This document shows positions 3,344 through 20,069 of a stretch of DNA of 64,000 bases, in pieces (the stretch's first letter is position 1; each line of letters begins with the position of its first letter). The notes below the pieces were generated by a model. The model was not told where the DNA came from. It saw only the letters and a list, made by a program, of their open reading frames with translations, and made no database searches. The position numbers and the translations under genes were made by a program. The stretch lies in assembly GCA_016178055.1 (NCBI GenBank), contig JACOUC010000036.1, forward strand, positions 9-64,008, given 5' to 3'. Source of the stretch: Chlamydiota bacterium (GTDB lineage Bacteria > Auribacterota > JACPWU01).

Positions 3344-3364
3344 CTTGCATCTACTCAAACGGCA

Positions 3365-3613: not shown

Positions 3614-3617
3614 GCTT

Positions 3618-3878
3618 TTACTCCAAGGGTGGAATACAACGAAGAGGGCTCCTTTTTCTTGCCCGATCCCAATCATCCACCAACTCACTCACATGAATTT
3701 TTCTCCACGCATTCACCAATCCCAAAGCCCGCTTGGACAAAGATCCTTTAATAATTTTCCCGCTTTCGATCTCAATCACAGCCTCCTCACCACCATACTT
3801 GGCATGAAAATGAGGCGGAGCATGATCATTCCAATAAATCGCAATGAGAATTCCAAAAAACCTACTGATGATTGGCAT
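3618..3878 (-). CDS. DUF4160-family protein
   Basis: MPIISRFFGILIAIYWNDHAPPHFHAKYG is the hallmark N-terminus of DUF4160. It is paired with DUF2442, as is usual for this two-gene module. Confidence 0.75.
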   Translation of the reverse strand: MPIISRFFGILIAIYWNDHAPPHFHAKYGGEEAVIEIESGKIIKGSLSKRALGLVNAWRKIHVSELVDDWDRARKRSPLRCIPPLE

Positions 3879-3930: not shown

Positions 3931-6900
3931 TCACATGCTTCGTTCCGTCATCTCCGTCGCTTCACGAAATTTTTCCATTTGATCATGCCAACGGCTTACA
4001 TTTGCGAAGGGCGTAACCTGATGCTCGTCCACATCCACAAGCAATCCTTCCAACTCATCAGGTTTAAAACCATGCTGAAGCAATGCTCGGGTAATCGCTT
4101 CGGCATCCCCATAACAAATGGCAGCCATCACGGACACCATCTCCTGACCGTACATGAATTTGTCAAAGAGCCCTTGAATGGGTTCATATAAGTTCCTATT
4201 TTCGCGATGCCCCAGCAGCCACTTTTCTGCCTCCTTCCCGCGAAAAAGTTCCCTCACTTTTGTATCGATTGCAGATCTCGCATCTTGTTCATTCAAATCT
4301 GTCAGGAAAAGAACTCTATCTTGAGGAATTTGATGTTCCCTGCAAAGGGTATCAAACTCTTCTCGAGATCTTTTTCGTTCCACAAAAACCATTTTACGAT
4401 TTCCTGTTTCGGATTCTTTAATAAATTCTGTCGGACTCAAACCTCCCAAACTTTGAACCGGTAAATCCATATCGGGGAATAGACAAACAGGTTTTTGATC
4501 TGCAGATGGTTTTAGAGCCGCTAAAAATTTTTTCTGAAAATGACGCAGCTTGGTTTTTAATCCAATCAGATAAGCGAGGGCCAAAGATAAATCTCTAGGC
4601 CGTGACATCTGAACGTGTGTGACACCCAGCGTCTGGGAATTCAGCTGAGCGGTCATTTCTCCTATTTCCATTTCGAATGACGCACCATTCATATCCTGTC
4701 TGATAGACCAAGTCACATCCCCACTAAAGTCGAGCGTAATCGAGCTTTGCTGAAATTCTCCTCTTTCTACCTTTCCTTCAAGCTCTTGCTCAATATTTTG
4801 AACTGTTTGACCCAACCCCTCCTCATCCAAAAGCCTCCTTGCCTCTAGCTCGAGAGAAAGTCTTTCAGTTTTTGCCTGATGAGCCTCTGCCTCTCTAATA
4901 AGATCCGGATGTTTGACTTGGATCATGAGTTCGACCAGTACAGCATCTAAAGTCTTAAGATCATTCTCTGAAAGCGATGTCTCTTTAGCAAATGAATGTG
5001 TCGCATCTCCCAAAGTCCAAAGAATGTCATAAACGGTATGGCTCTCCATCCATTCCCTTAAGGAAAGTCCCGCCGTTATGTTCTCCTGGGCCCAGGATTC
5101 AAAATTTTGAATTAAATTTTGTTTATGGAATTGAACAACGCCCTCTAAAATTCTAGACTTCAAAGGTTCATCTTCGGGCACCAAATGAAGATAAGCTGAA
5201 AAAATTTCTACTAAACCCTTTCGTTCATTGATGGCCCTAACAGCCGCCCGAACACTGGCCCAGGGGAAGGCGTCTCTTCCTTGATAATGACAAACCAAAA
5301 GGTCCGCTCGATACAACCATTTGTTTATCTCTGTAAAAAAGGCATTTGTCTCGTCAGGGTATAACGACCGAATCCCTGAAGTGTTATAGCCCGGGAAAGA
5401 CAAGCCCGTTATAAGAAATTCTACAGAGGAGTAAACTTCATACTCTGGTTGAAACGGGATGGCCTCTTGATAAAGGCAGTATTGATTCTCACCAACACGT
5501 TGAATCACCAAATAAAGATCTTCATTCTGATTTTCAAAATAAATTTCCCCCCTCGGTAAATTTAAAAAGCAAACGCCTTGATGGGAAAGACGCTTTAACA
5601 ATCTCTCCACCACCTCCTGTTGAGTCTGGGTCAATAAATAAAAAGGCTGAATGGCATTTCCAGATTCATCAACCCAATCGACCCCCTTCGCCAAAAACCT
5701 GCGTTCTACCCCTTCATCAGGTTTCTTTAAATGGTGTAAAGTCATGCTAAGCGAAATAAAATCAAAAGATTCTGCAGAACGATTCTGCATAAACGATTCA
5801 CTCATTACATCATTTTGAGGAATTCTGGCGTCAAGATATGTCACCCCTTCTACATCCGTTTGTCCTCTCTCCCTAAAATCCGCACTGTTAAAAGCACTCT
5901 CTCTGATCTCTCCACTCTCTAGCGAATAACTGGGGAAAAAGGCATCTGTTCCTTCATAGCTAAAATGGGTCCCGGGCAAAGCCTCTTCAAAAGTTTTTCT
6001 CAAAAGATTGAGCGTGGGAGCCCCATAAGCCTTCGGGGCAGATCCAATGTCCAGCCAACGATAATGGTCTTTATGAGGTATCGACAAATGAAGTGAAGGA
6101 AGGTGAGTGGGAATCCATTCCGCTTCAACACCAAAGGGATTTGCATAAAGATGATACATGTCCAGTAAATATCGAAACTGAGGATTGATTTGGATAAACC
6201 GGACAATCGGCTCTCTTGAAAAAATATCTCTTCCTTCAAACATATTCACCACTGCAAGTGCAAGAGGCATGAAACGATGTTCTCCACTGGCATGCCAGGT
6301 CATGAATTTTAGAAAACGCACTATATTTTCTAAGACCTCTTTTCGCCGAGTCTCTGGCAAAGCAGCAACGATTGATAAAATCTTTCCTGCCTCTCGATGT
6401 CGTTCATCGTCATTAGCAAAATCCAACCCGAAAATAGCTGCAATTCCTTCTAAAATATTTTTCTCTTCAATCGTTTGGTGATTAATCTCCGTATAAATTC
6501 GTTTAATCTCAGTTAAGATATTCGTCCGACGCATAACACCTAAAAACAACTTCAAATGTCTCTCCAAATTCGCCTCTCGGGAAAACCTCTTGCCAGCCAC
6601 TTGTCTCGCCCTTTGTCCCATCGTAACTCTTAAATTTGGATGACGGATTAATTCCTCAATTTTCCCTCTAAACGCTTCAACATTTCCAGACTCAACAATA
6701 CAGCCTGTTTCTCCATCCACAACTGTTTCAGGCAATCCTCCCGATCGAGAAACAATAACGGGTTTTCCCATACTTTGAGCCTCTAAAGACACGAGACCAA
6801 ATGTTTCCTCATTTTTTAATGGTTCATCTCGTCTGCTTGGCATGGCAACGATATCGGAAAGAAAATACCAATCTCTCATTTCTTCCGCACTCAAAGGGCC

Positions 6901-9900
6901 TAAAAGAACAATTAAAACACCCTCTTCACGCAAATGTTGAATTTTCTCATACAAAGACTCTCTGAACTGTCTATTGTAGTCGTCATCTCCGTCTCTCAGC
7001 ATATCCTCCGTGAAACCCGCAATGACAACAGCCGCATTCCTCTTTAAATCATTTGATAAGCCCAATATGGCATCGAGCACGACGTCATATCCTTTCCGTT
7101 CCACTGGACGGCCCGACATCAAAATAACTGTCTTACCGGACAAAGAATGATTTACTCTCAAGTCATCTGTTTTGGTAGTAGTCACATAACGAGGATCGTA
7201 AAAACTTAAATCAGCAACAGGATAAAGGCACTCCACTTCAACACCAAAGTCCTTCTGAAATCTTTTTTGAACAGACTCACTAACCGTCAGAGCTAAATCA
7301 GCTTTCTTAAGAATATTTACCGTATTCGGAGAGAAAAATCTTGAATCACCAACCAAATCTTCTGGGACTCGATCTAACAAACGCCAGGGCCCTGAGTGAA
7401 ATTCTTGGATCACAGGTATTTTATTTTGTTTTCCGAACGCATTAAAAGCATTCCCTGCATAGTGAAAAGAAGATTCACTCACAATGAGATCTACTTTACC
7501 CTCTTCTTGTAAAATTTTCCTTAACAAGCCATTGACTTCATCTGCAAGATCTTGCCCTGGCTCATTATTCTGACGAGTCATATGAATTTGAACAACGCCT
7601 TCCAATTCCGATGAAACGACGACTTTACCCCCATCCCGTTTCAATAATGGAGACACCCTTTGACCACCACCCAGAACAATCACATGGATTTTGAGTCCTT
7701 TAATCTCTTGAGCCAATAATAAAAGCAGATGATCCATATAGGTCGATACCCCATTCATCTCCAAATACCCAGGGGCATAAAAAACAAGCACTTTTCCCGA
7801 AAATGCCTCTTTGAGTTGAGATAAGTTCTCTGTTGTTGAAGCTTCCCCCTGTGTAACAGTAATCGAACCCTCTGGACTTGTTTGGGAACCTTGGTCATCG
7901 TTCGCATCATCCCCTAACACCCCCTTCTGATAAAGGGCCCCTGTGACCGTTACCCAATGATTAGAGACAATGTGGGCAATCAGGCCCATGGCCAAAACCG
8001 GCCAGAGGCGAAGTATATTTGAAAAAAGGTTTGATACAACACTCGTCGGTTGAATATCCGGAAGAAGACCAGCAAGGGCAATGTCAGGTTGAATTAACGA
8101 AGTTAATATCAGCAACCCCATGCCCACTACTAAAAAAATCGCTGCTCTTTGACTCTTTCCCTTGACTTGCCTAAGCATCTGTCCTACGATTCCTGCCATG
8201 GAAGAAAATAAATCTGAAAATGATTCCGTAATGAAATCAAGCCACGTGGCTGTCATTCTTGAAGACCTTCGAGGCCAATTTAAGGTTTTTGGAGAAGGGT
8301 TATCCGGACTTCGTGAAAAGACAGAGGAAGGCTTCGCAAGAATCGATAAAAAGTTCGACCGTATCGAAAATGAGCTTGCTAATTTTCGCGTTCGTGTGCG
8401 CGGAGTTGAAGACGGCAATGCACGTATAGAGACCAAAGTCGATAAGATCGAAACCCGACTAGAGAAGGTTGAGACCAAGGTTGATAAGATCGAAATCAGG
8501 CTAGGGAAGATCGAAACCCGACTAGAGAAGGGTGAAATCAAGGTAGAAAAGATTTCAGAAAGTAACGTCCGAATTGAGGCCGATCTTAGGATCATCAAAA
8601 ATCTTGTCAAAGTGAAGGTTGATTTGGAAGAATATAAAATTCTGGAAGATCGTGTTGCCCTTCTTGAATCAAAATTTGCTGCTCTAGCGAGATAACGCGC
8701 TCCATACAAATTCCACACCAAATAAAAAGTTATCCCAACCACCAAAATCATCTCCCACGATGAGAGCCCTGTACGGAAAAATCCAAGAAGTGAGACCAGA
8801 GAAATCAAGGTTGGAATGAAAATTCTTCTGAAGCTAGATGAAAAACCGCTCGAAGCTCGAGGCTCAAAGCTCGAGGTAAATACTTCTTCGGTTCTTTGCT
8901 TTTCCCTCGAGCTTCGAGCCTCCAGCTCATTTTTAGCTTCTAGCCGCCTTTCATGCCCCCACACAAACACCACTCTCAAGACGGCGTAGAGCACAGGACT
9001 TCCTAAAGATAAGGCCCAAATAAAAATTTCTTCGATAAAAGGAACAACAAAATCTTCTTTAAAATCTCGACTCAAAGACTTTCGTCCAAGAACATTTACC
9101 CAAAACCAGTCGAGAGGTCGAGTAACCTGAGACGCCAGCCAATAGGAAGGAAGAAGAACGCCTTTGCCAGAAGAGAAAGAACCTAAAGCAGGATCAACAT
9201 AGCGACTTATAAATGCTTTTAACTCTTGCACTTTAAACAGAGGTTTTTCAGAAAGTTTTCGGGCTTGAATCTCATTAATATAGTGATTGAGCCAAACTTT
9301 TGCTAATTCTAGTCCCTCCTTATTGCCATGTTTTTTCATCATCTCTAGCAAAAATCCTTGCATGACCCCTGTTCGAAGAATGGCATCATGCCCCTGGCCA
9401 AGACTTTCATGTCGATAGCCCTTCTCACCTTCCCTCAACGAGCCAAGCCAGTGTAAATTAAAATAGTAATCAAGAAAGTGAGATGGATCGATCCCTCTTT
9501 TAGTTCCCCGCCATGTGATGAGAGAGAATTTCATTTCCCGACCCGAAATAACAGAAGCTCTCCCTTGTGCCGCTGTCAAATCTCGAACATCCACTCCCAC
9601 ATCTCCTGCATTAATTCTAAAGCCATCAATCAGGGTTTGAGCCTCAGGATTATAGTAACGAACCAAAAACCGTCCCATGGCCGCAAGGGTATTGATCATA
9701 TCTCCAGGCTCAACAAAAGCGCCCCACTTTCCAGGCAAACTTGTATTAACGAGTAAATATCCAGGAGGGATTCGATTTGCCCAAGCATGATGAGGCGAAA
9801 TATACTGAATCTCATCCCGACCATTGATGAATCGACTCGTGTAGGCGCTCACTTTTCCTTCCTGAGTCTCGACCTCTCCATCACGCAAAACCTCGACCAA

Positions 9901-12900
9901 TTCTGCATCCCCGCGATGGCTTAAAAGGGCTTGATACTCACTCGATGTAACACGTGATTTTTCTTGTGCGTCTCTGGCCATGACCATCACCAAAGGAATC
10001 ACTTCCTTCGTTTGTTTTAAAGTTGTCAAAATAAAATAAATATTCTGATAAACCCCCTCTTGAAGGCGAATGACTTGAACAGGAAATTCAATATCATCTA
10101 AAGAAAGTTTACGCCCTCCCAATTCATCCTGAAGAGAATCGAGCAAAATATTTCCCTCTCCCGTTTCAAGATTCTTCATCAACAGAGCCTCAACCGCATT
10201 TCTTGATTGTGCCAATGTCAAATCATTGCGATCCCGAGGCACATCCCACTGATCTCCCTGCCGCCACTGACCCGCTCGATAGAGGTCATAATGGCAAATC
10301 CTACCCCCTTGAGCCATCGAGGCATTGTCCGGCATTTTCTCCATCGCTTGAGATAATCTTTGATAGATCTCAAGCGTCTGAGAGAAAGTGGAGGGCATTT
10401 TGGTTTTGAGTATATTCAGCTTTGATTGATAACGCTCAAGCAAAGTCCGATCCTGCAAAATCACAAAATTGACTGCTGTTAGAAATAAGAGTTGGTCTAC
10501 TTGACTCTGAATCGCCCCTTCAATAAGTTTTCCAAGTGTCCCGATCTCCTCGGAAAGCAAGGCCTGTCTCACTTCTTCTGTGATACGCTGATGCACATTT
10601 TCTCGTCGAACCACAAGAGGTTGAAGAGTAGAGGCTGCAGGCAAAGCAGTTTCACCAGACAAAATATGCGCCTCAATAAACCTCCTCAACGCCTTGCCCA
10701 GGGGATTTTTGCCTTCGCGATTGAAAATTTTATCTGTGAGCTGGATAATCTGAGGATGCGTAAGACGGGTTCTTTCCAAGGCCTCATGAAGGGTCGCTTC
10801 ATCCACCAGATCCGAAATGCCAGTGCTCTTTTCCTCCGCCTCAAGAAACTGCATCAGATTGACCGCCAAAGCGCTTTCAGAGCCCAAGAAATATTTTTCT
10901 CTGCTCAAGACCCGAGCCTCAAACCATTTGAAAGCCTCTCGAGGATTTTGAAGAGCCGCCAAGACCTTTACTATTTCATCGTTTTCAATTCCTTGCTGAA
11001 CCAATGTGCTCCAAATCTCACTTCCAAGGCGCCCAGCCAAAGCCCTCGAGCGTTCTTCCACAAGCGTTACAACAGGCTCATGGGAACTTCTCACCTTGTC
11101 ACTTTGCTCTTCAATTTCTCTTCGCCACTGGGCTTCTTCGTCAGGCGTAACCTCTGGGCCAATGATGTTGCCTGAAGATGGCTCTTCTTCACTTAAGGCG
11201 AGTGACGGAGATTGGGAAGTTTGAAGTTGCCACACAATTTTAGAAGATCCATCACCATTCGTCGTTAACACCTGACTCCCATCTTCAGAAAACTTAGCAG
11301 AGCGCACCCAATTTTTTCCTCCATAAAAAGTCTCAAGGAGCTCTCTTGTTTCAACATTCCATACTTGACCACTCCAATATCGAGTTCGCTCTAGGTAATA
11401 GTTATATTGATCACCCCCCCAGCTTGTTTCAGTTCTATCAAAACGCATTGTTAATACTGTACGTCCATCAGGGGAAACAAGAATATGAACAAGTTTTTTG
11501 CCCATGTATTCCCTATAACGCTTGATAATGCGTTCCTTTGCTTCTTCGGTTAATAGAGAATCAGGAGATCGAGGAGTCGTGGTACCTAAAGGAGCGTCTG
11601 ACGCTGTCGAAGTTACACTTCCTTTTTTCCCCCTCTTTCGAGAAGGACTTGACGGAGGTGTGACTGTTGCTCCAGCAGAGTCAGCTGTTATCGTTGTCGT
11701 GGTCGAATCAGCCCCTGAGCCCGTTTCATCTCGCACAGGTTCAGGGACTATGACTACTTTTGGAGCTTCCGTACATTCCATCCTCAACCAATATGTCACT
11801 TCATTCTCCCCTTCTGTAAAGCCCAACTGACACCCTGGAATAGATGCCATTTGTGCCTTGAGTTCGAGTAGTTTATTCCTGACATTGGATTCTCCTGATT
11901 CTCTGAGACGAAGGGCCTCCTGTCTTGCAGCTTCAATGTCTGGATATTCACCGGTGAGATGTGTTTTTAAGAATTTCTCTTCGTTGGCAGACATTCTTCC
12001 TTCTCTGACAATCTGAATATTAAAGTGGCCTTCTTTTAATTCACTTCCCAGTTCAATGAATCGGCCTGGGTTGTGGGTTTTGGCGATGCGGACAAATTCA
12101 TTGAGCCAGTCTTTTGCGATGGGTCTTTGTTCTTCTGGTAGAGGGAGAGCTTGTGTGAATGGGGTGATGGCTGCATCTTTTAGTTGGGGGTCGTTGTGGT
12201 TTGAACGCTGCCTTTGTTGAGGGGGTGCAGGTAAAGGGGTTCTGGCCCAGAAGCAGCCATATTGTCCATTCATCTGATCGGTTTTGGGAGCGGTTCTTTC
12301 AGAGTCGATGAGATTTGAAAGCACGGCTGGCTCCACCCCATCATTCTGAGAATCCACTGTTTGGCCGACGAGTCCCATGATCTTCTGAAAGATGGGAGCG
12401 ACAGCTTGAGAAGCTGATAATCGATTGTCTGAAGGGGGCGCAGGGTCGAAGGTGAATTGAAAGCCTCTTTCTGGGTTGATGTCTATGTGGAAGGTTCCGC
12501 CATTGAGAATGTGGCCTTGAGCCATTTCTTCGAGGATTCTGTTGCTTAAGGGGTCTCTGATCTCCTGTTCGATGAGTCGTCGTAAGGGCCGTGCCCCATT
12601 GATGATGTCATAGCCTCTTTGAGCGAGGGTTTCATAGACGTTATCCGCGACTTCGACTTTGAATTTGTTTTCTGTGAAGTCACTGAGTTCCCGTTTTAAG
12701 AGGATGCGAGCAATTTGTCTTATGTTTTCAGGGGTGATGACGTTGCAGGCGATGATGTGGTCGATGCGGTTGATGATTTCAGGTTTGTATTTGGCTCTGA
12801 TGCTGGTTTCTACGGTTTGGGCAATGAGGTCGTTCATTTGGGTAATAATAGCTTGTGTTGCCTCTTCTGTTTCTGCGGTTTTAAGTTCTTCAGCCAGGGT

Positions 12901-15900
12901 TCGTAATGGACCTTGTATTTTCTCCATGCCAATGTTGGAGGTCATGATGATGAGGGTGTTTTTGAAGTCGACGGTGTTCCCTTGGCCGTCGGTGAGTTTT
13001 CCTTCGTCGAAGACTTGCATGAGGGTGGTAAGGACGTCCGAATGGGCTTTTTCGATTTCATCAAAGAGGAGAACGGAATAAGGACGTTTGCGGACGGCTT
13101 CGGTGAGTTGGCCGCCTTCTTGGAATCCCACATAACCCGGTGGGGAGCCGATGAGTCTGGATTTTTGATGGGATTCTTGGTATTCACTCATATTGAAGAC
13201 CGTTAAGGCCTGGTCGCTGTCAAAGAGGAATTGAGCTAAGGCTTTAGCCAGTTCTGTTTTGCCTACGCCTGTGGGGCCGGCCATGAAGAAGACGCCCATG
13301 GGACGTTTGCGCTCACCGGGGATAGCCCGGGCACGACGAATGGCTTGAGCGACGGCTTTGATGGCGTCTTCTTGGCCTACGACTCTTTTATGGAGTTCTC
13401 CTTCGATGTTCAAATATTTGGCTGCGTCGTCTTGGTCTAAGGCACCGACGGCCATGCCGGTCATGTCGGCTAAATATTCCTGGACGTCGGCTTGGGTGAT
13501 GCGGATGTCTTTTCTTAAATTGGATAATCGGCTCAAAATAGTATGGTAAGCCTCGAGTATGCCGATCATTTGGTTATGGACTTCGATGACGGTGGGGTCG
13601 GTGTCTGGAACTCCTTCTTTTTTAAGGTCGATGTATTCGTTAATGACGCTGTGGAGACGGTTGAGGAAGTCTTCTTTAGTCATTTCTAGACTGTTCCTTC
13701 GGGCGTTGACTCGGCCCATGGTTCCTTCTAAGACGTCAATGGCTTTGCGGGGTTGGGATTTTTCAGAGAGATAGCGTTGGGCGCATTTGACAGCGGCTTT
13801 AATGGTAGCACGATCTATTTTGAGTGAGAATTTTCCTTCTAAGTAGGTTTTGGCGCCCGTAAGAATGGTTTCTGTTTCCTGGACACTGGGTTCAGGGACA
13901 GAAACTTTGGTAAACCTGTCTTCGAAGGGTTTGTCTTGTTCGATGTAGGCTTTGTATTCAGGGTCTGTCGTGGCCCCAATCACAGTGACTCGCCCTTTTT
14001 CCAGGATGGGCTTTAAGAGGTCTGCGATTCGGGTGTCAATGCTGTTGCTGGGCCCTTTCAATAGGAAATGGATTTCATCGATGAAGAGAATGACGTTGTT
14101 GTTGGTTTTTTCAAGGAGTGGGATCAGTGTTTTGAGGTTGTCTGACATCTCTGAGAGGGTGCTTCCTAAAGCACCCGCTTTAAGGGCAATGATTCTCCTA
14201 CCCTTTAAAGGGCCATCGAGGTTGTTTCGGGCAAGTTTCAAAGAGACGAGTTCGACGAGGGCTGTTTTACCGACTCCTCTGGGGCCGACAAGAACTAAGC
14301 TGTTTTTGATTCTTACTGGAGTGGCCAGACGAGCCATGATGCGGCCGATTTCTTCAGAGCGCCCCACCAATGGGCGAGCGCTGTCAGCTTCAAGAGCGAG
14401 GTCATAGGTATAGTCTTTTAATACCTGCCACTCTTTTTTCTTTTGACCATTGCCTAAATCGACATCTGCGTTCAGTCCTATTCTCTTCAAGTAATCATCC
14501 AGGGGCTCCATCGGAGACTCACCTACAGAGAGTCGAAGGAATGGGACACCGAGGAGATATCCTAAAAGACCTGCAACTACGGTAAACAATAAGGAAGCAA
14601 TCGAAGATCTCCCATTGATCATCGAAGCCCCCCATGGTACTATTTTGATAAAGGAGGCTTTAAAATGTCCGCGAAACTGCAAGAGCTGACGGAATTGATG
14701 GGAGAATTGGAGCCTAAAAGTCTTTCTCGACGAAGTAGAAATGTTGCCAAAGCGCTCTTGGGTAGCTGCCGCGGCCTCATCACGCCTCGAGGTAAGTCCT
14801 CTACCCGGTGGATCCGACAAGAACGTTCCTCCCTCCACAGCAAGGTGAGATAGTTCTGTGCCCTCATTACCAACACTCATTCTCGATACAGATGTCATTG
14901 TCAACTGGCTATCGGAAGAGCTTGAAACAGGAACAGGTCGAGAGTTATGGAAAGCCCCATTTGACATTATCTCTAAAGCAGAAGAAGGTCGCTCTAGTGT
15001 ACTCATTTGTCTTACAACTCTGTTAGAGCTTAGATTTCTCTTGAGGAGAAAGAAACGGCTGAGTGACGCTTCGATTCGGTCTATTATTAATCGAATGTTC
15101 CAAATTATTTCGGTCAATGTTCCTGACAAAACTGAATTGCTCAGGGCCAACCATCTCCAGAGCCTCCATCCTTTGGACCCGTTTGACGCAATACTGCTCG
15201 CTTGCGCCATGTCGTCTGAAGAAGCTATTCTTGTTTCTCGTGACAAGCCACTCCTTCGCATTGCATCTGAATTCCTTGAAGCACTTAACCCTGAAGATGC
15301 CCTCGCCAAAATTTCAAAGTCTTGAATAGCATCAATGCTAAGACGAAAAACCGGAGAGCCAAAAATCCATCCTAAGAGGCCTGTCCCTATGGCTAATAAC
15401 ACAGAACCAATTTTGAGGATGTGTTGAGCATGTGTATGCTCTCCTTTTCCATCGCCATGAGAATGGGTGTGAGCGGGTTTCATCACTATGCTTGAGGTAG
15501 GGCCTCCTTCATTTGAGGATTGAAGAAGTTCGAGGATTTTAAATTCATCGAGCCAATTCCCAATGGCTTCTACGACGCTTACTCCGTCAGGGAGCCTACA
15601 CTCTTCTATAAGTTTTCTTACAGTGGCTTCATCATCGGCCCCCATTTTTCCCATTTCACGCAGTTTTTCAATCAGCCTGGGCGTTAAGGCCTCACGAAAG
15701 CGCTCTTGAGTATAAGCACCGCTATTGATCATTTCATCCAGGGCCTCAGGGACGGCATGGGAAGCAGCATGTTCTGCGTCTTCTGAGTCTAAGTTGCTTT
15801 TGATGTCGGGATTCTTTTCGGCATCTTGAGCAAGTTGCCGCCCGATCCGGCCTAAGATCTGAGTCAATTTCTTCGCCGCTTCGTCTAGTTTTTTCTGAAT

Positions 15901-18900
15901 AAATTCTTCCTTCATGAGAATATTGGCTTGAATCTCTTTAAAAGGCTTACCGTAATGCTGTTCCAGCTCTTTTTGAAAAAGTTTAATAAAAAGGTCCCGC
16001 GTCTTAGGATCAGCCGTTTTTAATCGATCCGCCAGAAATTCACGTAAGGGTCTTTCCTCACACCAGCCCAGGGCACCAAAACCAAAGAATGCAGATATGG
16101 GAGACGTCATTGCGAGGAGCGAGAGCTCCGAAGCAATCCCAGCTTTGCGCAAAACAGAGATGGCTTCGTCGGCTTCACCTCCCTGCAATGACGGCCAAAC
16201 ATAGCTTCCATCCAAAGACGGAAGAGGCAAAAGATTCACCAACCCTAAAGCCAAATTAATTTTGACTCCCCAAATAAGCGGGCCCATTAAAAATCCAAAA
16301 GGCCCAACGGCATTAGCGGCAAGGGCCCCTACCGCAAAGACCACGGCCAAAATTAAATTACTCACCGGCCCCGCAAGCGCTACTTTCTTCATCGAAGATT
16401 CTGAGAGCCGCCAAGAAGAAATAGGAACGGGCTTTAACCACCCGATCGGAATCCCGATCAAAAGCGTAGACGCTAAAAAAGAAATCGTCCCCCAAAAATC
16501 TAAATGCCTCCAAAACCTGAGCAACGTCAATCGCCCCGCCTCCTCAGCCGTCCGATCCCCCAACCTCGCCGCCAGCCATCCATGGGCATATTCATGAAGA
16601 ATCGCGGAGAAGAGAATAATTGCTATCAATGGAACAGCACTTCCTAAAAGGCCAGGGTTGGCCACAAATACAGCGGCAAAAGGAATGCACAAAAAGACAT
16701 AAATATTCTTGACTTGCCCCGGACTTGATTCTATGATTTTTCTCATGAATGAGAAAAAGACTCCAAAACCTATTCCTACTCCAGAAGAAGCCCAGCGATA
16801 CAACTCCGTTATTATTGAGGAGATGAGAAGCCAATTTAAGGTTTTTGGCGAAGGATTAACCGGTTTTAGAAAAGAAACGAATGCACGATTTGACAGACTC
16901 GAAGAAGTCGTTATGGATACGCGTGAACGTGTCTCTAGGGTAGAGAATAGACTCACCAAAGTTGAAGAGAGCAACGCTCGCATTGAATCTGACATTCGCC
17001 TCATCAAAAACCAAATCAAAGTCAAGGTGGATTTAGAAGAATTTAAAGTACTTGAAAATCGGCTTGTGATCGTTGAAAAAAGACTGGCTGCCCTTCCCAT
17101 CTCCGCTTGATTAGCGCTATTTGAAACTCTTCTGGAACCCCCTATACTGCGTATCAAGCCATCCACATCCCCCACATATCCTCCTAATTCCAAGGCTCTT
17201 CTAAGGTAAATTTCTATTGAATGAGCCGTTTGTGCGTGACTCAGGAAAAATCGCATCTGATCTTGCGTGAGCGTAGTCACGCGTTCAAGCCAAAGAAGAG
17301 GGTTTTTCTGCAATTCATCGGAAACTTCCGAACGATTTTCCTTTCCCGCTTTCCTCTCTATTTCTCGAATAACCCCTTCTAAATCTCTCGCCACCTCCTC
17401 CCAATTTTCTAAATTAAGTTCTCGGGCCAAAACCTCTTGATCCCTTTGCCATTGATCAAATTGGAGAGCCGTAAGCCCCGCAGCAAAAGCAGCCTCTTCT
17501 CCCAACGAGCGTATTTCCTCAAGAAAATGAAGCCTCGCGATTTTCTGAAGGGTCGGAAGTGAGGCTTCTTTTAAAGCATCAGGAGCGCCCGAAATAAATC
17601 CAAATTGCTCTTTCATCTTCCTAAAATAGGCGCTGCGATCGTCATGACCCGTCATACGAGGGGCAATGACCCAATAACCGATCTTGGCCTCTTTCAATTT
17701 CTTCGTGATCCCCTCCGTATGAAACCCACCCACCACAAGCGCTGCACAGGGAAGTTTCTTTTCCTGAATTAATTTAAGAGATTTTTCGAACATGATTTTG
17801 TCTCGTTTTAGAACTTGAGTGTAGAATTTTTGGGAGAGGTTAAAGATTTCTCCAAAATCAGGAGATTCATAGTCTATTGCTTCCTTTTTAGCTAATTCGC
17901 CAAGTTGAATTAGAAAATCTCCGATAAAGTCGTTCGGGCCTGCTTGGCTCGAGGCTCGAGGATAATACTTTGCTCGAGGCTCGAAGCTCGAGGCTCGAAG
18001 TAAATGCTTCTCCAGTTTTTGCTTTTGCCTCGAGCCTCGAGCTTCGAGCCGTTTTATGTCTTCCCTACTTCCTTCCATCGCAATCACACGCCTGAGTAGG
18101 TCATAGTCTTTTTCTAACGCCAGCAGCTCTTTCGCCTGAGGCGTTGTCGCCAAATTTTCAACGAGTTCTCCTTCGAGGTTTTTAATTTCTTCATCCAACT
18201 TCTCCCAAGAGATTTGTTTTAGGAGAGACATTTGTTGAATAAGGAGTTGAAGATTGGGATATGGAGCTGATTTCTCGACAGGCTCGAAACGTTTATTAAT
18301 TCTGTTATTGGAGTGCTTCTCGACTGCGCCTCTCGCTCCACTATCGTTTCTCGACGCGTTTCGACTAATGTCGAAACTTGCTTGAAAACTAAATTTATTG
18401 TTCGAGCGTAGTCGAGAACCTTCCTTCGCGTCCTCTACCTCCTCCTGGCCCCTCCTTGTGGTTTGCGCCGTGTTAGGCTCCAACCACTTCCTCGTCCACC
18501 CGCTACGGCGGGTACCCGGACTTGGTCGCAAGGAAGGGAGATTATTTCCCTCTAGCTTCGAGCCTCGAGCCTCGAGCATTCCTAAGTACTTGCTTAGGAA
18601 CAAATAATGCTCTTCATCACTGGTTCTGCCCAGCCGATGCTCTAAGATATTTCTCAAAACTTCATTGAGTTCTTCTTTTGGAAGCTTCTTCTCTAGTTCA
18701 GATAAAAATAAGAGGTATTCAGACTCAATTTTTGATGCGTCCGTTTTCTTTTCGAGTGCTTGGAGTCGAAGGTAGAAATCAAGCTGGGGGTAGTTTTGGC
18801 TCGAAGCTCGAGGCTCAAGGCTCGAGGAGGAAAGAGGAAGAGATTTATTTTCTACATTTTCAGTTTTTCCTTTTGTCTTTGCTTTTGCCTCGAGCTTCGA

Positions 18901-19887
18901 GCCTCGAGCCTTCAGCCCGTTTTCCGCTTCTAGCTGCTTTACATATTCCCCCATCTCTATCTTATGCTCCCTATACTTCTCCCTTTCTTCAATGAGCTCT
19001 ATCAATTCCTTTGGATAAATTTTTTCGGACAAACCCCTAAATATATCATCTAAACCCTGCCAGACATGCTCTTGTAAATTCCTCTCCTTCAAAAGCTCCC
19101 CCATCGCCCTTAAATTCTCGACATAATCAGACAGTTCTTCCACCCCCACTCCCTTAACCTTTTTTGGCCCTTCCTTAACGAGAAAAGTCTCCACCCCATC
19201 GAGTTCATTTTTATCCAAGAATTTTTTGAGAAGAGAAGCTAAAACCCTCTGATCTGGGAAAGACCAGAAAAAGGACATGTCCATTTCACCATCAGCAGCC
19301 TCACAAAATATATGAAATGGTTTAAAATTCTCAGATACGGCTCTAACTTTGAGATTGTTTTGGCTCGAAGCTCGCCCGCCTCGCCTGACTCGTTCGTCAG
19401 ACGAGTCGCCGCCTTTGGCGAGCCTCGCCCTTTGGCGGGAGGTGGGAGGCTCAAGGCTCGAGGTAAATACTTCTGCTTTCTTTGCTTTTGCCTCGAGCTT
19501 CCAGCTTCGAGCCTCGAGCCCGTTTTTTTCTTCGAGCTTCGAGCCTCGAGCCTCTAGCTGCTTTTGTAAAATTTTCAACATCCTCTGAATATTCTCTTGC
19601 GCCTGAGAATTACAATGAATATCTTCAATAATGAAGAGATGAGGTGCTCCGGGGACATAGAATTGATCGGTCACTTCCCCTATTTCATGGGGAATACGCA
19701 TCTCCTCCAAAACTGAACTTAAATCGAGGGATTTGCGATCCACAGGATTAAACTCATTTACAGAAGTGACTGCTTTCAAATGAGTTGCGAATTGAGTATT
19801 CTGGCCAACAGAATAAGAAATGTCATAAAAGAGGAAGGAAAAACAAACGCACAAACTAATCAATGAACGCATAAACCTGACAAGCAT
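3931..19887 (-). CDS. Giant composite ORF1. Order: signal/TM, ChaN/TraB-like N-domain, M50 protease, Clp-type 2xAAA+, beta-propeller-like segment, large unknown region, GT4 glycosyltransferase, SAM-methyltransferase-like block, unknown C-terminus. It may be four fused cistrons.
   Basis: No stop from 19998 to 3931 (5355 codons). Likely start is ATG 19887 (MLVRFMRSLISLCVCFSF, signal-like), preceded by GAGAGGGG. The blocks are separated by stretches that are antisense to real plus-strand genes. In the ORF1 frame these stretches translate as S/T/L/R-rich low-complexity sequence. Confidence 0.55.
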   Translation of the reverse strand: MLVRFMRSLISLCVCFSFLFYDISYSVGQNTQFATHLKAVTSVNEFNPVDRKSLDLSSVLEEMRIPHEIGEVTDQFYVPGAPHLFIIEDIHCNSQAQENIQRMLKILQKQLEARGSKLEEKNGLEARSWKLEAKAKKAEVFTSSLEPPTSRQRARLAKGGDSSDERVRRGGRASSQNNLKVRAVSENFKPFHIFCEAADGEMDMSFFWSFPDQRVLASLLKKFLDKNELDGVETFLVKEGPKKVKGVGVEELSDYVENLRAMGELLKERNLQEHVWQGLDDIFRGLSEKIYPKELIELIEEREKYREHKIEMGEYVKQLEAENGLKARGSKLEAKAKTKGKTENVENKSLPLSSSSLEPRASSQNYPQLDFYLRLQALEKKTDASKIESEYLLFLSELEKKLPKEELNEVLRNILEHRLGRTSDEEHYLFLSKYLGMLEARGSKLEGNNLPSLRPSPGTRRSGWTRKWLEPNTAQTTRRGQEEVEDAKEGSRLRSNNKFSFQASFDISRNASRNDSGARGAVEKHSNNRINKRFEPVEKSAPYPNLQLLIQQMSLLKQISWEKLDEEIKNLEGELVENLATTPQAKELLALEKDYDLLRRVIAMEGSREDIKRLEARGSRQKQKLEKHLLRASSFEPRAKYYPRASSQAGPNDFIGDFLIQLGELAKKEAIDYESPDFGEIFNLSQKFYTQVLKRDKIMFEKSLKLIQEKKLPCAALVVGGFHTEGITKKLKEAKIGYWVIAPRMTGHDDRSAYFRKMKEQFGFISGAPDALKEASLPTLQKIARLHFLEEIRSLGEEAAFAAGLTALQFDQWQRDQEVLARELNLENWEEVARDLEGVIREIERKAGKENRSEVSDELQKNPLLWLERVTTLTQDQMRFFLSHAQTAHSIEIYLRRALELGGYVGDVDGLIRSIGGSRRVSNSANQAEMGRAASLFSTITSRFSSTLNSSKSTLTLIWFLMRRMSDSMRALLSSTLVSLFSTLETRSRVSITTSSSLSNRAFVSFLKPVNPSPKTLNWLLISSIITELYRWASSGVGIGFGVFFSFMRKIIESSPGQVKNIYVFLCIPFAAVFVANPGLLGSAVPLIAIILFSAILHEYAHGWLAARLGDRTAEEAGRLTLLRFWRHLDFWGTISFLASTLLIGIPIGWLKPVPISSWRLSESSMKKVALAGPVSNLILAVVFAVGALAANAVGPFGFLMGPLIWGVKINLALGLVNLLPLPSLDGSYVWPSLQGGEADEAISVLRKAGIASELSLLAMTSPISAFFGFGALGWCEERPLREFLADRLKTADPKTRDLFIKLFQKELEQHYGKPFKEIQANILMKEEFIQKKLDEAAKKLTQILGRIGRQLAQDAEKNPDIKSNLDSEDAEHAASHAVPEALDEMINSGAYTQERFREALTPRLIEKLREMGKMGADDEATVRKLIEECRLPDGVSVVEAIGNWLDEFKILELLQSSNEGGPTSSIVMKPAHTHSHGDGKGEHTHAQHILKIGSVLLAIGTGLLGWIFGSPVFRLSIDAIQDFEILARASSGLSASRNSDAMRRSGLSRETRIASSDDMAQASSIASNGSKGWRLWRWLALSNSVLSGTLTEIIWNIRLIIDRIEASLSRFFLLKRNLSSNRVVRQMSTLERPSSALEIMSNGAFHNSRPVPVSSSSDSQLTMTSVSRMSVGNEGTELSHLAVEGGTFLSDPPGRGLTSRRDEAAAATQERFGNISTSSRKTFRLQFSHQFRQLLQFRGHFKASFIKIVPWGASMINGRSSIASLLFTVVAGLLGYLLGVPFLRLSVGESPMEPLDDYLKRIGLNADVDLGNGQKKKEWQVLKDYTYDLALEADSARPLVGRSEEIGRIMARLATPVRIKNSLVLVGPRGVGKTALVELVSLKLARNNLDGPLKGRRIIALKAGALGSTLSEMSDNLKTLIPLLEKTNNNVILFIDEIHFLLKGPSNSIDTRIADLLKPILEKGRVTVIGATTDPEYKAYIEQDKPFEDRFTKVSVPEPSVQETETILTGAKTYLEGKFSLKIDRATIKAAVKCAQRYLSEKSQPRKAIDVLEGTMGRVNARRNSLEMTKEDFLNRLHSVINEYIDLKKEGVPDTDPTVIEVHNQMIGILEAYHTILSRLSNLRKDIRITQADVQEYLADMTGMAVGALDQDDAAKYLNIEGELHKRVVGQEDAIKAVAQAIRRARAIPGERKRPMGVFFMAGPTGVGKTELAKALAQFLFDSDQALTVFNMSEYQESHQKSRLIGSPPGYVGFQEGGQLTEAVRKRPYSVLLFDEIEKAHSDVLTTLMQVFDEGKLTDGQGNTVDFKNTLIIMTSNIGMEKIQGPLRTLAEELKTAETEEATQAIITQMNDLIAQTVETSIRAKYKPEIINRIDHIIACNVITPENIRQIARILLKRELSDFTENKFKVEVADNVYETLAQRGYDIINGARPLRRLIEQEIRDPLSNRILEEMAQGHILNGGTFHIDINPERGFQFTFDPAPPSDNRLSASQAVAPIFQKIMGLVGQTVDSQNDGVEPAVLSNLIDSERTAPKTDQMNGQYGCFWARTPLPAPPQQRQRSNHNDPQLKDAAITPFTQALPLPEEQRPIAKDWLNEFVRIAKTHNPGRFIELGSELKEGHFNIQIVREGRMSANEEKFLKTHLTGEYPDIEAARQEALRLRESGESNVRNKLLELKAQMASIPGCQLGFTEGENEVTYWLRMECTEAPKVVIVPEPVRDETGSGADSTTTTITADSAGATVTPPSSPSRKRGKKGSVTSTASDAPLGTTTPRSPDSLLTEEAKERIIKRYREYMGKKLVHILVSPDGRTVLTMRFDRTETSWGGDQYNYYLERTRYWSGQVWNVETRELLETFYGGKNWVRSAKFSEDGSQVLTTNGDGSSKIVWQLQTSQSPSLALSEEEPSSGNIIGPEVTPDEEAQWRREIEEQSDKVRSSHEPVVTLVEERSRALAGRLGSEIWSTLVQQGIENDEIVKVLAALQNPREAFKWFEARVLSREKYFLGSESALAVNLMQFLEAEEKSTGISDLVDEATLHEALERTRLTHPQIIQLTDKIFNREGKNPLGKALRRFIEAHILSGETALPAASTLQPLVVRRENVHQRITEEVRQALLSEEIGTLGKLIEGAIQSQVDQLLFLTAVNFVILQDRTLLERYQSKLNILKTKMPSTFSQTLEIYQRLSQAMEKMPDNASMAQGGRICHYDLYRAGQWRQGDQWDVPRDRNDLTLAQSRNAVEALLMKNLETGEGNILLDSLQDELGGRKLSLDDIEFPVQVIRLQEGVYQNIYFILTTLKQTKEVIPLVMVMARDAQEKSRVTSSEYQALLSHRGDAELVEVLRDGEVETQEGKVSAYTSRFINGRDEIQYISPHHAWANRIPPGYLLVNTSLPGKWGAFVEPGDMINTLAAMGRFLVRYYNPEAQTLIDGFRINAGDVGVDVRDLTAAQGRASVISGREMKFSLITWRGTKRGIDPSHFLDYYFNLHWLGSLREGEKGYRHESLGQGHDAILRTGVMQGFLLEMMKKHGNKEGLELAKVWLNHYINEIQARKLSEKPLFKVQELKAFISRYVDPALGSFSSGKGVLLPSYWLASQVTRPLDWFWVNVLGRKSLSRDFKEDFVVPFIEEIFIWALSLGSPVLYAVLRVVFVWGHERRLEAKNELEARSSREKQRTEEVFTSSFEPRASSGFSSSFRRIFIPTLISLVSLLGFFRTGLSSWEMILVVGITFYLVWNLYGARYLARAANFDSRRATRSSRILYSSKSTFTLTRFLMILRSASIRTLLSEIFSTLISPFSSRVSIFPSLISILSTLVSTFSSRVSILSTLVSIRALPSSTPRTRTRKLASSFSIRSNFLSILAKPSSVFSRSPDNPSPKTLNWPRRSSRMTATWLDFITESFSDLFSSMAGIVGQMLRQVKGKSQRAAIFLVVGMGLLILTSLIQPDIALAGLLPDIQPTSVVSNLFSNILRLWPVLAMGLIAHIVSNHWVTVTGALYQKGVLGDDANDDQGSQTSPEGSITVTQGEASTTENLSQLKEAFSGKVLVFYAPGYLEMNGVSTYMDHLLLLLAQEIKGLKIHVIVLGGGQRVSPLLKRDGGKVVVSSELEGVVQIHMTRQNNEPGQDLADEVNGLLRKILQEEGKVDLIVSESSFHYAGNAFNAFGKQNKIPVIQEFHSGPWRLLDRVPEDLVGDSRFFSPNTVNILKKADLALTVSESVQKRFQKDFGVEVECLYPVADLSFYDPRYVTTTKTDDLRVNHSLSGKTVILMSGRPVERKGYDVVLDAILGLSNDLKRNAAVVIAGFTEDMLRDGDDDYNRQFRESLYEKIQHLREEGVLIVLLGPLSAEEMRDWYFLSDIVAMPSRRDEPLKNEETFGLVSLEAQSMGKPVIVSRSGGLPETVVDGETGCIVESGNVEAFRGKIEELIRHPNLRVTMGQRARQVAGKRFSREANLERHLKLFLGVMRRTNILTEIKRIYTEINHQTIEEKNILEGIAAIFGLDFANDDERHREAGKILSIVAALPETRRKEVLENIVRFLKFMTWHASGEHRFMPLALAVVNMFEGRDIFSREPIVRFIQINPQFRYLLDMYHLYANPFGVEAEWIPTHLPSLHLSIPHKDHYRWLDIGSAPKAYGAPTLNLLRKTFEEALPGTHFSYEGTDAFFPSYSLESGEIRESAFNSADFRERGQTDVEGVTYLDARIPQNDVMSESFMQNRSAESFDFISLSMTLHHLKKPDEGVERRFLAKGVDWVDESGNAIQPFYLLTQTQQEVVERLLKRLSHQGVCFLNLPRGEIYFENQNEDLYLVIQRVGENQYCLYQEAIPFQPEYEVYSSVEFLITGLSFPGYNTSGIRSLYPDETNAFFTEINKWLYRADLLVCHYQGRDAFPWASVRAAVRAINERKGLVEIFSAYLHLVPEDEPLKSRILEGVVQFHKQNLIQNFESWAQENITAGLSLREWMESHTVYDILWTLGDATHSFAKETSLSENDLKTLDAVLVELMIQVKHPDLIREAEAHQAKTERLSLELEARRLLDEEGLGQTVQNIEQELEGKVERGEFQQSSITLDFSGDVTWSIRQDMNGASFEMEIGEMTAQLNSQTLGVTHVQMSRPRDLSLALAYLIGLKTKLRHFQKKFLAALKPSADQKPVCLFPDMDLPVQSLGGLSPTEFIKESETGNRKMVFVERKRSREEFDTLCREHQIPQDRVLFLTDLNEQDARSAIDTKVRELFRGKEAEKWLLGHRENRNLYEPIQGLFDKFMYGQEMVSVMAAICYGDAEAITRALLQHGFKPDELEGLLVDVDEHQVTPFANVSRWHDQMEKFREATEMTERSM
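5560..6070 (-). other. ORF1 block: class I SAM-methyltransferase-like region
   Basis: WLDIGSAPKAYGAPT (motif I-like) and FDFISLSMTLHHL (motif III/post-II-like). Weak call made by eye. Confidence 0.35.
6530..7800 (-). other. ORF1 block: GT4-type (GT-B) glycosyltransferase domain
   Basis: VLVFYAPGYLEMNGVSTYMDHL at the N-terminal end of the block. GRPVERKGYD and the EX7E-type ETFGLVSLEAQSMGKPVIVSRSGGLPETV motif lie toward its C-terminal end. Confidence 0.75.
8162..8190 (+). promoter_or_regulatory. Sigma70-type promoter giving a leaderless transcript of the nested coiled-coil gene (copy 1)
   Basis: TTGACT (8162..8167), 17-nt spacer, TACGAT (8185..8190), 7 nt, then ATG at 8198. The geometry is identical to 16709..16737. 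Confidence 0.6.
8198..8695 (+). CDS. Coiled-coil protein of unknown function (copy 1), nested antisense in ORF1
   Basis: MEENKSEN... with six near-perfect heptads (IETKVDK IETRLEK VETKVDK IEIRLGK IETRLEK GEIKVEK). It is a paralog of 16745..17110, sharing QFKVFGEGL and the conserved tail N.RIE.D.R.IKN..KVKVDLEE.K.LE.R. The TTG at 8162 used by the ORF track is the -35 box. Confidence 0.7.
   Translation: MEENKSENDSVMKSSHVAVILEDLRGQFKVFGEGLSGLREKTEEGFARIDKKFDRIENELANFRVRVRGVEDGNARIETKVDKIETRLEKVETKVDKIEIRLGKIETRLEKGEIKVEKISESNVRIEADLRIIKNLVKVKVDLEEYKILEDRVALLESKFAALAR
8848..8945. repeat. In-frame palindromic (GCTCGAG)n hairpin element
   Basis: Left arm 8848..8876, loop TAAATACTTCTTCGGTTCTTTGCTTTTC, right arm 8905..8928. 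In ORF1 it translates as LEAKNELEARSSREKQRTEEVFTSSFEPRASS. Confidence 0.85.
12480..14420 (-). other. ORF1 block: Clp/Hsp100-type double AAA+ ATPase
   Basis: Walker A motifs GPRGVGKT (~14264..14290) and GPTGVGKT (~13255..13280). Also ILFIDEIH, VVGQEDAI, LLFDEIEKAH and GARPLRRLIE motifs. A single TM helix precedes the block (MINGRSSIASLLFTVVAGLLGYLLG). Confidence 0.85.
14615..14643 (+). promoter_or_regulatory. Sigma70-type promoter of the nested PIN module
   Basis: TTGATC (14615..14620), 17-nt spacer, TACTAT (14638..14643). It is followed by the SD AAGGAGG (14651..14657) and ATG 14665. Confidence 0.5.
14665..14853 (+). CDS. Small protein upstream of the PIN gene, putative cognate antitoxin
   Basis: Perfect SD AAGGAGG 7 nt before the ATG. 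The ORF ends 4 nt before the PIN start. No recognisable antitoxin fold by eye. Confidence 0.45.
   Translation: MSAKLQELTELMGELEPKSLSRRSRNVAKALLGSCRGLITPRGKSSTRWIRQERSSLHSKVR
14858..15325 (+). CDS. PIN-domain (VapC-like) ribonuclease, nested antisense in ORF1
   Basis: LILDTDVIVNWL at the N-terminus, LLEL, DPFDAILLACA and SRD acidic-residue motifs of PIN domains. GTG start, with AAGGTGAG upstream. Confidence 0.8.
   Translation: MPSLPTLILDTDVIVNWLSEELETGTGRELWKAPFDIISKAEEGRSSVLICLTTLLELRFLLRRKKRLSDASIRSIINRMFQIISVNVPDKTELLRANHLQSLHPLDPFDAILLACAMSSEEAILVSRDKPLLRIASEFLEALNPEDALAKISKS
16150..16746 (-). other. ORF1 block: M50 (site-2 protease) family metalloprotease
   Basis: HEYAHGW at 16582..16596 (HExxH within a TM helix) and the NLLPLPSLDG motif. 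The block begins at an in-frame Met at 16746 (MRKIIESSPGQVKNIYVFLCIPF). Confidence 0.8.
16709..16737 (+). promoter_or_regulatory. Sigma70-type promoter giving a leaderless transcript of the nested coiled-coil gene (copy 2)
   Basis: TTGACT (16709..16714), 17-nt spacer, TATGAT (16732..16737), 7 nt, then ATG at 16745. Confidence 0.6.
16745..17110 (+). CDS. Coiled-coil protein of unknown function (copy 2), nested antisense in ORF1
   Basis: MNEKKTPKPIP...IIEEMRSQFKVFGEGLTGFRKE...KVKVDLEEFKVLENRL. Paralog of 8198..8695. Confidence 0.7.
   Translation: MNEKKTPKPIPTPEEAQRYNSVIIEEMRSQFKVFGEGLTGFRKETNARFDRLEEVVMDTRERVSRVENRLTKVEESNARIESDIRLIKNQIKVKVDLEEFKVLENRLVIVEKRLAALPISA
17946..18050. repeat. In-frame palindromic (GCTCGAG)n hairpin element
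   Basis: Arms 17972..18000 and 18028..18050, loop TAAATGCTTCTCCAGTTTTTGCTTTTG. Translated as LEARGSRQKQKLEKHLLRASSFEPRA. Confidence 0.85.
18290..18577. repeat. Composite GC-richer insertion ending in a (CCTCGAG)n arm
   Basis: Contains the 20-mer GTTCGAGCGTAGTCGAGAAC (18400..18419), an internal IR CCTTCCTTCGCG/CGCAAGGAAGG, and the arm 18550..18577. ORF2 and ORF3 have no counterpart in their N-domains. Confidence 0.6.
18798..18917. repeat. In-frame palindromic (GCTCGAG)n hairpin element, long-loop variant
   Basis: Arms 18798..18827 and 18888..18917, with a ~60-nt loop similar to that of 54885..55004. Confidence 0.85.
19362..19556. repeat. In-frame (GCTCGAG)n element with a nested GC-rich hairpin insertion
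   Basis: GGCTCGAAGCTCG ... [GACTCGT-TCGTCAG-ACGAGTC hairpin] ... GGCTCAAGGCTCGAGG TAAATACTTCTGCTTTCTTTGCTTTTG CCTCGAGCTTCCAGCTTCGAGCCTCGAGCC. Confidence 0.8.
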
Positions 19888-20069
19888 GACAACCCCTCTC
19901 GATCTTGAAAAAATCAATAATGACTGCAAGCTTACATAAGTAAAGACACTTTGGGGACTAGAAATGTAAAAATAAAAATTTAGAAATTTCCATCTCACAA
20001 TTGATAAAGGAAGGTTTCTTATAGAATAACCAGCTATTCCTTCAAGCCCTTACATAATGATTTCCTCTA

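Follow-up and report, generated by a model that had tools for sequence, protein, structure and literature searches.

Four genes nested antisense in a 16-kb stop-free reading frame of a Chlamydiota bacterium: a proposed translated mosaic giant gene

We analysed a window of 64,000 nucleotides (nt) from contig JACOUC010000036.1 of the Chlamydiota bacterium assembly GCA_016178055.1, and in particular ORF1, an open reading frame (ORF) on the minus strand at 3931..19998 that contains no stop in 5355 codons of 42–49% GC sequence. Three stretches of ORF1 that lie between its enzyme blocks are the reverse complement of four plus-strand genes. An earlier note on the sequence had described this arrangement, and both the open frame and the positions of the four nested genes were verified. 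The sequence evidence somewhat favours the view that ORF1 is a translated mosaic giant gene, that selfish toxin-antitoxin-type cassettes lie antisense in its linkers, and that selection keeps its frame open. None of the three stop codons occurs in the ORF1 frame, which makes the question of an alternative genetic code irrelevant. The nested genes and the elements beside them are as follows (aa, amino acids; TM, transmembrane; SD, Shine-Dalgarno).

16709..16737, plus strand: promoter of cc1, TTGACT-17-TATGAT, which stops 7 nt short of the ATG (leaderless-type); its antisense reading is QVK of ORF1
16745..17110, plus strand: cc1, a 121-aa coiled-coil gene antisense in ORF1, with third codon positions that coincide with those of ORF1
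8162..8190, plus strand: promoter of cc2, TTGACT-17-TACGAT, which stops 7 nt short of the ATG
8198..8695, plus strand: cc2, a 165-aa paralogue of cc1 with 21-nt heptad repeats, antisense in ORF1
14665..14853, plus strand: small ORF, the 62-aa partner of the PIN gene, with an AAGGAGG SD sequence 7 nt upstream, codon-aligned antisense to ORF1
14858..15325, plus strand: PIN_3-domain toxin gene with a GTG start, antisense in ORF1
15328..15423, minus strand: TM-helix repeat copy A (HILKIGSVLLAIGTGLLGWIFGSPVFRLSIDA), directly upstream (in the ORF1 sense) of the toxin-antitoxin cassette
14515..14607, minus strand: TM-helix repeat copy B (SSIASLLFTVVAGLLGYLLGVPFLRLSVGES), directly downstream of the toxin-antitoxin cassette

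The nested genes were assessed by family membership, homologues, and expression signals. The PIN product matched PF13470 at 2e-11 and PF01850 at 1.4e-10, and the N- and C-terminal acidic motifs of a PIN toxin were visible (LDTDV and DPFDAILL). Its small partner gene is located upstream in the same operon across a 4-nt gap, and the perfect SD sequence that the earlier note had assigned to it was found. The pair recurs with the same 4-nt spacing in another contig, L016, with identities of 59% for the small ORF and 56% for PIN_3. The small ORF had two homologues among 1.8 billion representatives, and its 62-aa product gave zero matches in Pfam, NCBIfam, and PADLOC and resembles no known antitoxin family. 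The two coiled-coil genes are paralogous, as claimed before, and come from a small family whose members also occur free-standing in other Chlamydiota-type contigs. No family name for the cc products was found in Pfam, NCBIfam, or PADLOC, where only generic coiled-coil noise was returned, and viral contigs and plasmids yielded no member of the family. The promoter architecture was kept in all eight cc genes examined: a TTGACT-like -35 box, a 17-nt spacer, a TAnnAT -10 box, and 7 nt to the start codon (9 nt in one of them). This promoter-to-start spacing predicts leaderless mRNAs for the cc genes. A promoter and terminator scan gave no enrichment relative to shuffles. The codon-usage score within the cassettes points to the plus strand as the coding strand. 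Judged by their families, free-standing homologues, and conserved signals, all four nested genes are real genes.

The cc genes come after DUF433/DUF5615 or small-ORF/PIN pairs in three contigs (L014, L016, and L019). Because the cc genes adjoin such pairs, all three cassettes of ORF1 can be regarded as one toxin-antitoxin-associated repertoire. DUF433 is a predicted antitoxin of PIN toxins (PMC2701414). The cassettes resemble type II PIN (VapC-like) toxin-antitoxin modules, including the DUF433 (COG2442)-PIN type, in that a small gene is followed after 4 nt by a PIN gene and the pair is kept elsewhere. They differ from these modules in that the partner gave no match to a known antitoxin family, the pair is located inside a coding sequence rather than between genes, and the leaderless coiled-coil gene is undescribed.

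In cc1, cc2, and PIN the third codon positions fall on the third positions of ORF1 codons, and the small ORF is codon-aligned with ORF1. Both frames are open through the whole of each overlap. We resampled the synonymous codons of the plus-strand genes, using either the codon usage of the window or permutation within each gene, and calculated the probability that the ORF1 frame remains open. The values for window usage and within-gene permutation were 5.8% (0.058) and 10% for cc1, 28% and 36% for cc2, and 2.7% and 12% for PIN. For the small ORF the first value was 0.6%, and permutation trivially gave 100%, because this gene contains no TTA, CTA, or TCA. The joint probability was approximately 3e-6, or approximately 2.5e-4 with the most lenient value for each gene, and both figures precede the requirement that three junctions be in frame, (1/3)^3. 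The earlier note had set a refutation threshold of 5–10% for such shuffling; cc1 and cc2 exceed it singly, whereas the joint probability does not.

The real genes of the window contain 4.3–5.4 antisense stops per 100 codons in every phase. Stretches of these genes with the lengths of the four nested genes were antisense-open in 0.5%, 0%, 0%, and 6.7% of cases, and no stretch of 156 or 166 codons was open. The eight cc genes together contain 3 antisense stops, where 8.9–11.5 would be expected (P = 0.0017 or lower), and non-nested copies account for all 3. The codon choices listed in the earlier note were reproduced. A C-ending codon precedes 9 of 9 His/Gln codons in cc1, cc2, and PIN, despite the preference of the genome for T, while both Tyr codons follow an A-ending codon and Tyr is absent from PIN. 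TTA, CTA, and TCA are used for neither the 9 Leu nor the 10 Ser residues of the small ORF, whereas they occur six times in the PIN gene. Selection on the second frame is thus seen solely as phase-specific stop avoidance, and it is from these selection signatures that we infer dual coding. In the ORF1 frame, the peptides within the cassettes contain 18–25% Ser, and the tryptic peptides predicted from the cc1-antisense segment include VSNSANQAEMGR, AASLFSTITSR, and FSSTLNSSK.

ORF1 itself is composed of the following blocks, and the window contains two further giant ORFs.

17113..19887, minus strand: N-terminal domain of ORF1, paralogous to the N-termini of both other giant ORFs in the window; the probable true start of ORF1 is ATG 19887, preceded by GAGAGGGG
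16093..16653, minus strand: M50 (site-2-protease-like) metalloprotease domain with the motifs HEYAH and NLLPLPSLDG
12520..14373, minus strand: ClpB-like double AAA+ ATPase (AAA, AAA_lid_9, AAA_2, ClpB_D2-small)
8696..12519, minus strand: region of unassigned function with a few WD40-like repeats
6601..7755, minus strand: GT4 glycosyltransferase domains (Pfam)
5551..6075, minus strand: methyltransferase-like domain (weak Pfam match)
3934..5124, minus strand: C-terminal domain, with 82% identity to the corresponding end of the orthologue in a related metagenome-assembled genome (MAG; locus L011)
35563..56601 (7012 aa) and 56702..63754 (2350 aa), minus strand: two other giant ORFs with Ser/Thr kinase and PP2C domains

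The cassettes separate the N-terminal domain, the M50 block, the ClpB-like AAA+ block with the WD40/unassigned region, and the GT4 and methyltransferase-like block, so the insertions lie at block borders as the earlier note had stated. The catalytic motifs of the M50 domain, both Walker A loops, and GT4 are intact. Both M50 signature motifs (HExxH and NxxPxxxLDG) were found, and two AAA+ modules followed by a D2-small domain, with an E-value of 1.3e-61 for AAA_2, correspond to the ClpB/Hsp104 type. A hydrophobic segment after the methionine (Met) at 19887, at the start of the N-terminal domain, is a candidate signal or anchor. ORF1 is one of three tandem giant paralogues with a common N-terminal domain: approximately 500 aa at the N-termini of the 7012-aa and 2350-aa ORFs are paralogous to it, and the N-terminal domain is fused to long cargo in both neighbours, which also have a C-terminal region in common. 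Within these two ORFs, no antisense genes with a family match were found. The remaining long plus-strand ORFs in ORF1 and in its two giant paralogues matched no family and were taken to be shadow ORFs.

The orthologous locus L011, in a Chlamydiota MAG, has the same DUF4160/DUF2442 neighbours downstream. Its 1350-aa ORF runs through the end of the N-terminal domain, the antisense strand of a cc orthologue, a NAGPA cargo, and the C-terminal domain. The cc orthologue is intact and contains an extra 126 nt. The termini are thus conserved around differing central cargo, a NAGPA phosphodiester glycosidase in L011 versus M50, ClpB-like, and GT4 in ORF1. DNA homology between the window and L011 ends approximately 8 nt outside the -35 box of the cc gene, so the cargo swap is bounded by the edge of the cassette. 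The earlier note had raised the question whether related genomes lack the cassettes and have the blocks as separate genes; in L011 the cc cassette is instead present, within a single ORF, and it is the cargo that differs.

L011 also bears on the observation that each block after a cassette begins with its own Met. These Mets are present, but the in-frame Mets 16746 and 8199 arise from the CATG palindrome that they form with the cc start codon, and the peptide MRKI(I/L)ESSP.QVK is kept in L011 although another block comes next there. These two Mets are therefore features of the cc cassette and not relics of block starts. As noted before, two of the three internal Mets lack an SD sequence; only Met 14622, of the ClpB block, is preceded by an SD-like sequence (GGGGGG).

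Cassettes of the same repertoire were found in other open antisense frames. L016 (1427 nt, 58% GC) carries DUF433, small-ORF, PIN_3, and cc-like genes, and one antisense frame is stop-free from end to end. Its phase relation is that of the window, and the DUF433 gene is open too, in a phase that normally contains many stops. L019 (1223 nt, 47% GC) carries DUF433, DUF5615, and cc, again with one antisense frame stop-free from end to end. The 291-nt gap between its toxin gene and cc (535..825, minus strand) encodes an intein N-terminal splicing region (PF14890, E 1.4e-6). A segment at 2312..2518 on the minus strand of L015 is 71% identical to it (E 8.6e-7), and the cc gene is directly next in antisense. 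Splicing domains thus stand beside homologous cassettes in two other loci, where the cassettes occupy the usual position of the homing endonuclease of an intein. Both intein matches are partial and below the Pfam gathering score, and both contigs are truncated. The antisense frame through the cc gene of L015 ends beside an IS4-type DDE transposase (589..1752), which suggests that the host ORF was cut short by an insertion sequence.

We propose that ORF1 of this Chlamydiota-like bacterium is a real gene translated into a mosaic giant protein, and that it belongs to a tandem set of three paralogues in which the N-terminal domain is shared and the enzyme cargo varies. Three compact, selfish cassettes on the opposite strand, comprising two leaderless cc genes with their promoters and one small-protein/PIN_3 pair, would be expressed from their own signals. 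Ribosomes on ORF1 would read these cassettes as Ser-rich linker peptides of approximately 120–235 aa, and purifying selection on the synonymous sites of the cassettes would keep the ORF1 frame stop-free. Any stop there would shorten the protein and would probably also break the coupling of translation to transcription over the downstream 3–13 kb. The cassettes lie at module borders, which are probably sites of cargo exchange.

Several observations weigh against this proposal. Taken alone, cc1 and cc2 are open in 6–36% of the resamplings, and the cc family is intrinsically low in Tyr, His, and Gln. The strongest term in the joint probability, the 0.6% of the small ORF, applies the codon usage of the window to a possibly foreign gene, and PIN-like usage would give approximately 6%. 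By codon usage, the ORF1-frame peptides within the cassettes appear non-coding, with scores between those of coding and ordinary antisense sequence. L016 and L019 are short contigs, and their open frames are individually of modest significance (P approximately 0.006 and 0.016). In the only orthologue, L011, continuity is broken: the N-terminal domain (8115..10000) is split over at least 3 reading frames by at least 3 frameshifts, at the place where the window has hairpin repeats; either the locus is a pseudogene or the repeats caused errors in the assembly. It would also be biologically odd for a polytopic M50 protease, a ClpB-like ATPase, and GT4 to be united in one polypeptide. For cassettes taken as mobile units, the flanks revealed neither target-site duplications nor inverted or terminal repeats, apart from the diverged TM-helix repeat.

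Four other explanations of the open frame were compared with the mosaic giant gene. In the explanation that we regard as unlikely yet the most serious of the four, ORF1 is an operon without stops, in which the blocks are made as separate proteins by internal initiation or proteolysis and the open frame maintains ribosome cover, preventing polarity and premature termination. The Met and hydrophobic helix at the start of each block after a cassette, the GGGGGG before the Met of the ClpB block, the resemblance of the blocks to complete free enzymes (stand-alone M50 homologues, two full AAA+ modules), the variation in base composition between blocks, which suggests separate origins, and the junk-like linker peptides are all in its favour. 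It is opposed by the origin of two of the three Mets, which lack an SD sequence, belong to the cc cassette, and are kept in L011 before another block; by the absence of stops from every block; by the constant fusion of the N-terminal domain to cargo in the paralogues; and by the Pfam search of ORF1, in which no CPD or Hint processing domain was found. The earlier note had left the choice between one giant protein and an operon without stops open. Real nested genes, stop avoidance in the ORF1 phase, fusion of the N-terminal domain to cargo in the paralogues, and the single ORF of L011 favour the giant protein, and the argument from free-standing blocks is weakened by the Mets at the cc junctions. 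Assembly chimerism or a decaying array of pseudogenes, which would make the long frame biologically meaningless, is the least probable explanation of all. The source is probably metagenome-derived, the orthologue is frameshifted in its N-terminal domain, and the hairpin repeats of that domain could mislead assemblers; but a chimera or pseudogene would gain stops and not avoid them over 16 kb, the M50, Walker A, and GT4 motifs are intact, the cc junction is common to an independently assembled genome, and the C-terminal domain is 82% identical to that of the orthologue.

We consider it very improbable that the cassettes arrived as the interior of inteins or Hint elements, which are stop-free because they are translated through, and that those of ORF1 are degenerate remnants or are still spliced or cleaved. 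The PF14890 region encoded in L019 and L015 (71% identity) by the stop-free antisense frame beside cc/toxin-antitoxin genes, together with the endonuclease position of the cassettes there, agrees with such an origin. No Hint or intein (PF14890) signal was detected in ORF1, including 160 aa upstream and 120 aa downstream of each cassette, at E-values up to 10, and by eye no C-terminal HN followed by Cys, Ser, or Thr (blocks F/G) was seen after the cassettes; in addition, a complete intein was not seen in the truncated contigs L015 and L019. A by-eye resemblance of the flank before cc1 to intein blocks B/N4 was dropped as unsupported, since this flank looks helical and not Hint-like. A chance or neutral shadow ORF, in which coiled-coil and small basic genes are low in antisense-stop codons and three junctions are in frame by luck, is slightly less probable still and is strongly disfavoured. 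In support of chance, cc2 was open in 28–36% and cc1 in 6–10% of the resamplings, the free-standing cc gene of L014 is antisense-open too, and the window may have been picked for its extremeness, so that selection bias is possible. The joint probability of 3e-6 to 2.5e-4, even before the frame requirement, and the empirical count of zero among same-length stretches of real genes argue otherwise, as do the C-ending codons before all nine His/Gln codons against the T preference of the genome, the recurrence of the pattern in L011, L016, L019, and L015, and the family-wide stop deficit.

The mosaic giant gene can be compared with several known systems. Like the antisense overlapping genes of bacteria, it has open frames on opposite strands over hundreds of codons, with coinciding third positions for three of the four genes. 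To our knowledge, the antisense overlaps reported from bacteria involve a short, young ORF that has overprinted an old gene, whereas here the nested genes are old and family-defined and the enclosing 16-kb frame is the "junk" reading across four genes. Rickettsia palindromic elements are in-frame, stop-free selfish DNA that is tolerated within ORFs, where it adds a peptide between domains. The cassettes are likewise in frame and stop-free, but they are 0.4–0.7 kb long, carry opposite-strand promoters and functional genes, and lack terminal inverted repeats. Short, non-coding, palindromic in-frame repeats of this kind are represented in ORF1 by its GCTCGAG hairpin repeats, which behave exactly so, and not by the cassettes. 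As in inteins with a homing endonuclease, the insert would have to be translated through within a host ORF, and the L015 and L019 cassettes stand at the endonuclease position. In inteins the cargo is an in-frame endonuclease, whereas here it is a toxin-antitoxin or cc gene on the opposite strand, and ORF1 has no detectable Hint blocks. Conserved N- and C-terminal domains with central cargo that varies between relatives recall the modular giants of the MARTX and polymorphic-toxin type (PMC3482391). The cargo of ORF1 differs in consisting of housekeeping-type enzymes with TM helices, and its swap boundary is an antisense gene cassette. No autoprocessing, RTX, Rhs, or toxin domains were found in ORF1.

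Our literature searches did not turn up any account of toxin-antitoxin genes that lie antisense inside giant genes or inteins. We tentatively suggest, as a possibility about which we remain doubtful, that the cc genes and PIN-type pairs of this lineage are "ORF-compatible" selfish cassettes of one class. Kept without stops in one antisense phase, such cassettes may reside in the linkers of giant genes and in intein interiors, where they would replace the homing endonuclease, and may drive the exchange of enzyme modules between giant genes; hundreds of codons would then be translated from both strands. Coding by both DNA strands is rare in bacteria, and long antisense dual coding there is disputed because one partner is usually a short ORF without a family. 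In the present case each partner has independent support, the nested genes from homologues and signals and the host frame from its flanking domains, paralogues, and orthologue. Both are demonstrably real, and the mark of selection at synonymous sites can be measured. If the ORF1 frame proved to be translated, the locus would provide a clean natural system for two proteins that share one DNA segment, would show how selfish toxin-antitoxin cassettes can colonise the coding sequence of compact genomes, and would suggest a way in which giant mosaic genes acquire and exchange their enzyme modules. Such cassettes are systematically missed, because gene callers suppress nested genes entirely; the exact PIN product had no record in the collection of called genes. 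An exact look-up of the 2350-aa neighbour product also gave no record. When GTDB genomes and JGI metagenomes were scanned with the M50 block, the sole matches were distant M50 proteins that stand alone, and no orthologous locus emerged. The C-terminal domain of ORF1, used as a protein query, gave zero matches, although P0001 has that domain.

Further features of the cassettes and of the giant ORFs were observed. The TM-helix repeat that flanks the toxin-antitoxin cassette is a diverged direct repeat with an RLS motif, identical at 13 of 28 aa and at 56% of the DNA. The cc1 start codon lies at the centre of a perfect 10-bp inverted repeat at 16737..16758 (TTTTTCTCAT / ATGAGAAAAA), a possible operator or hairpin that is nearly kept in L011. 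At 8444..8553, cc2 contains four 21-nt (heptad) repeats in tandem, and their expansions leave both strands in frame. The ClpB-like block (11900..14500) has a higher GC content (0.47–0.50) and a plus-strand GC skew of +0.2, versus negative skew elsewhere in ORF1, and this composition suggests a separate origin of the ClpB-like module.

In-frame clusters of the palindromic GCTCGAG/GCTCGAA repeat are present in ORF1 at the following positions.

17946..19558: cluster in the N-terminal domain, read as LEARGSKLE or SSLEPRASS
8842..8945: second cluster, read in the same two ways

The repeat has a 7-nt period, and all 26 matches in the window are within the three giant ORFs and always in frame; in addition to the two clusters of ORF1, they are located at 36487..36515, 54886..55649, and 63040..63399. 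Whether LEARGSKLE or SSLEPRASS is read is set by the orientation of the repeat. Downstream of ORF1, DUF4160 (3618..3878, minus strand) and DUF2442 (3365..3688, minus strand) are arranged as in L011 and form part of a toxin-antitoxin-type cluster at 2820..3878, in which an AbrB-like gene (2820..3083, plus strand) and a RelE-like gene (3080..3343, plus strand) were recognised by inspection only.

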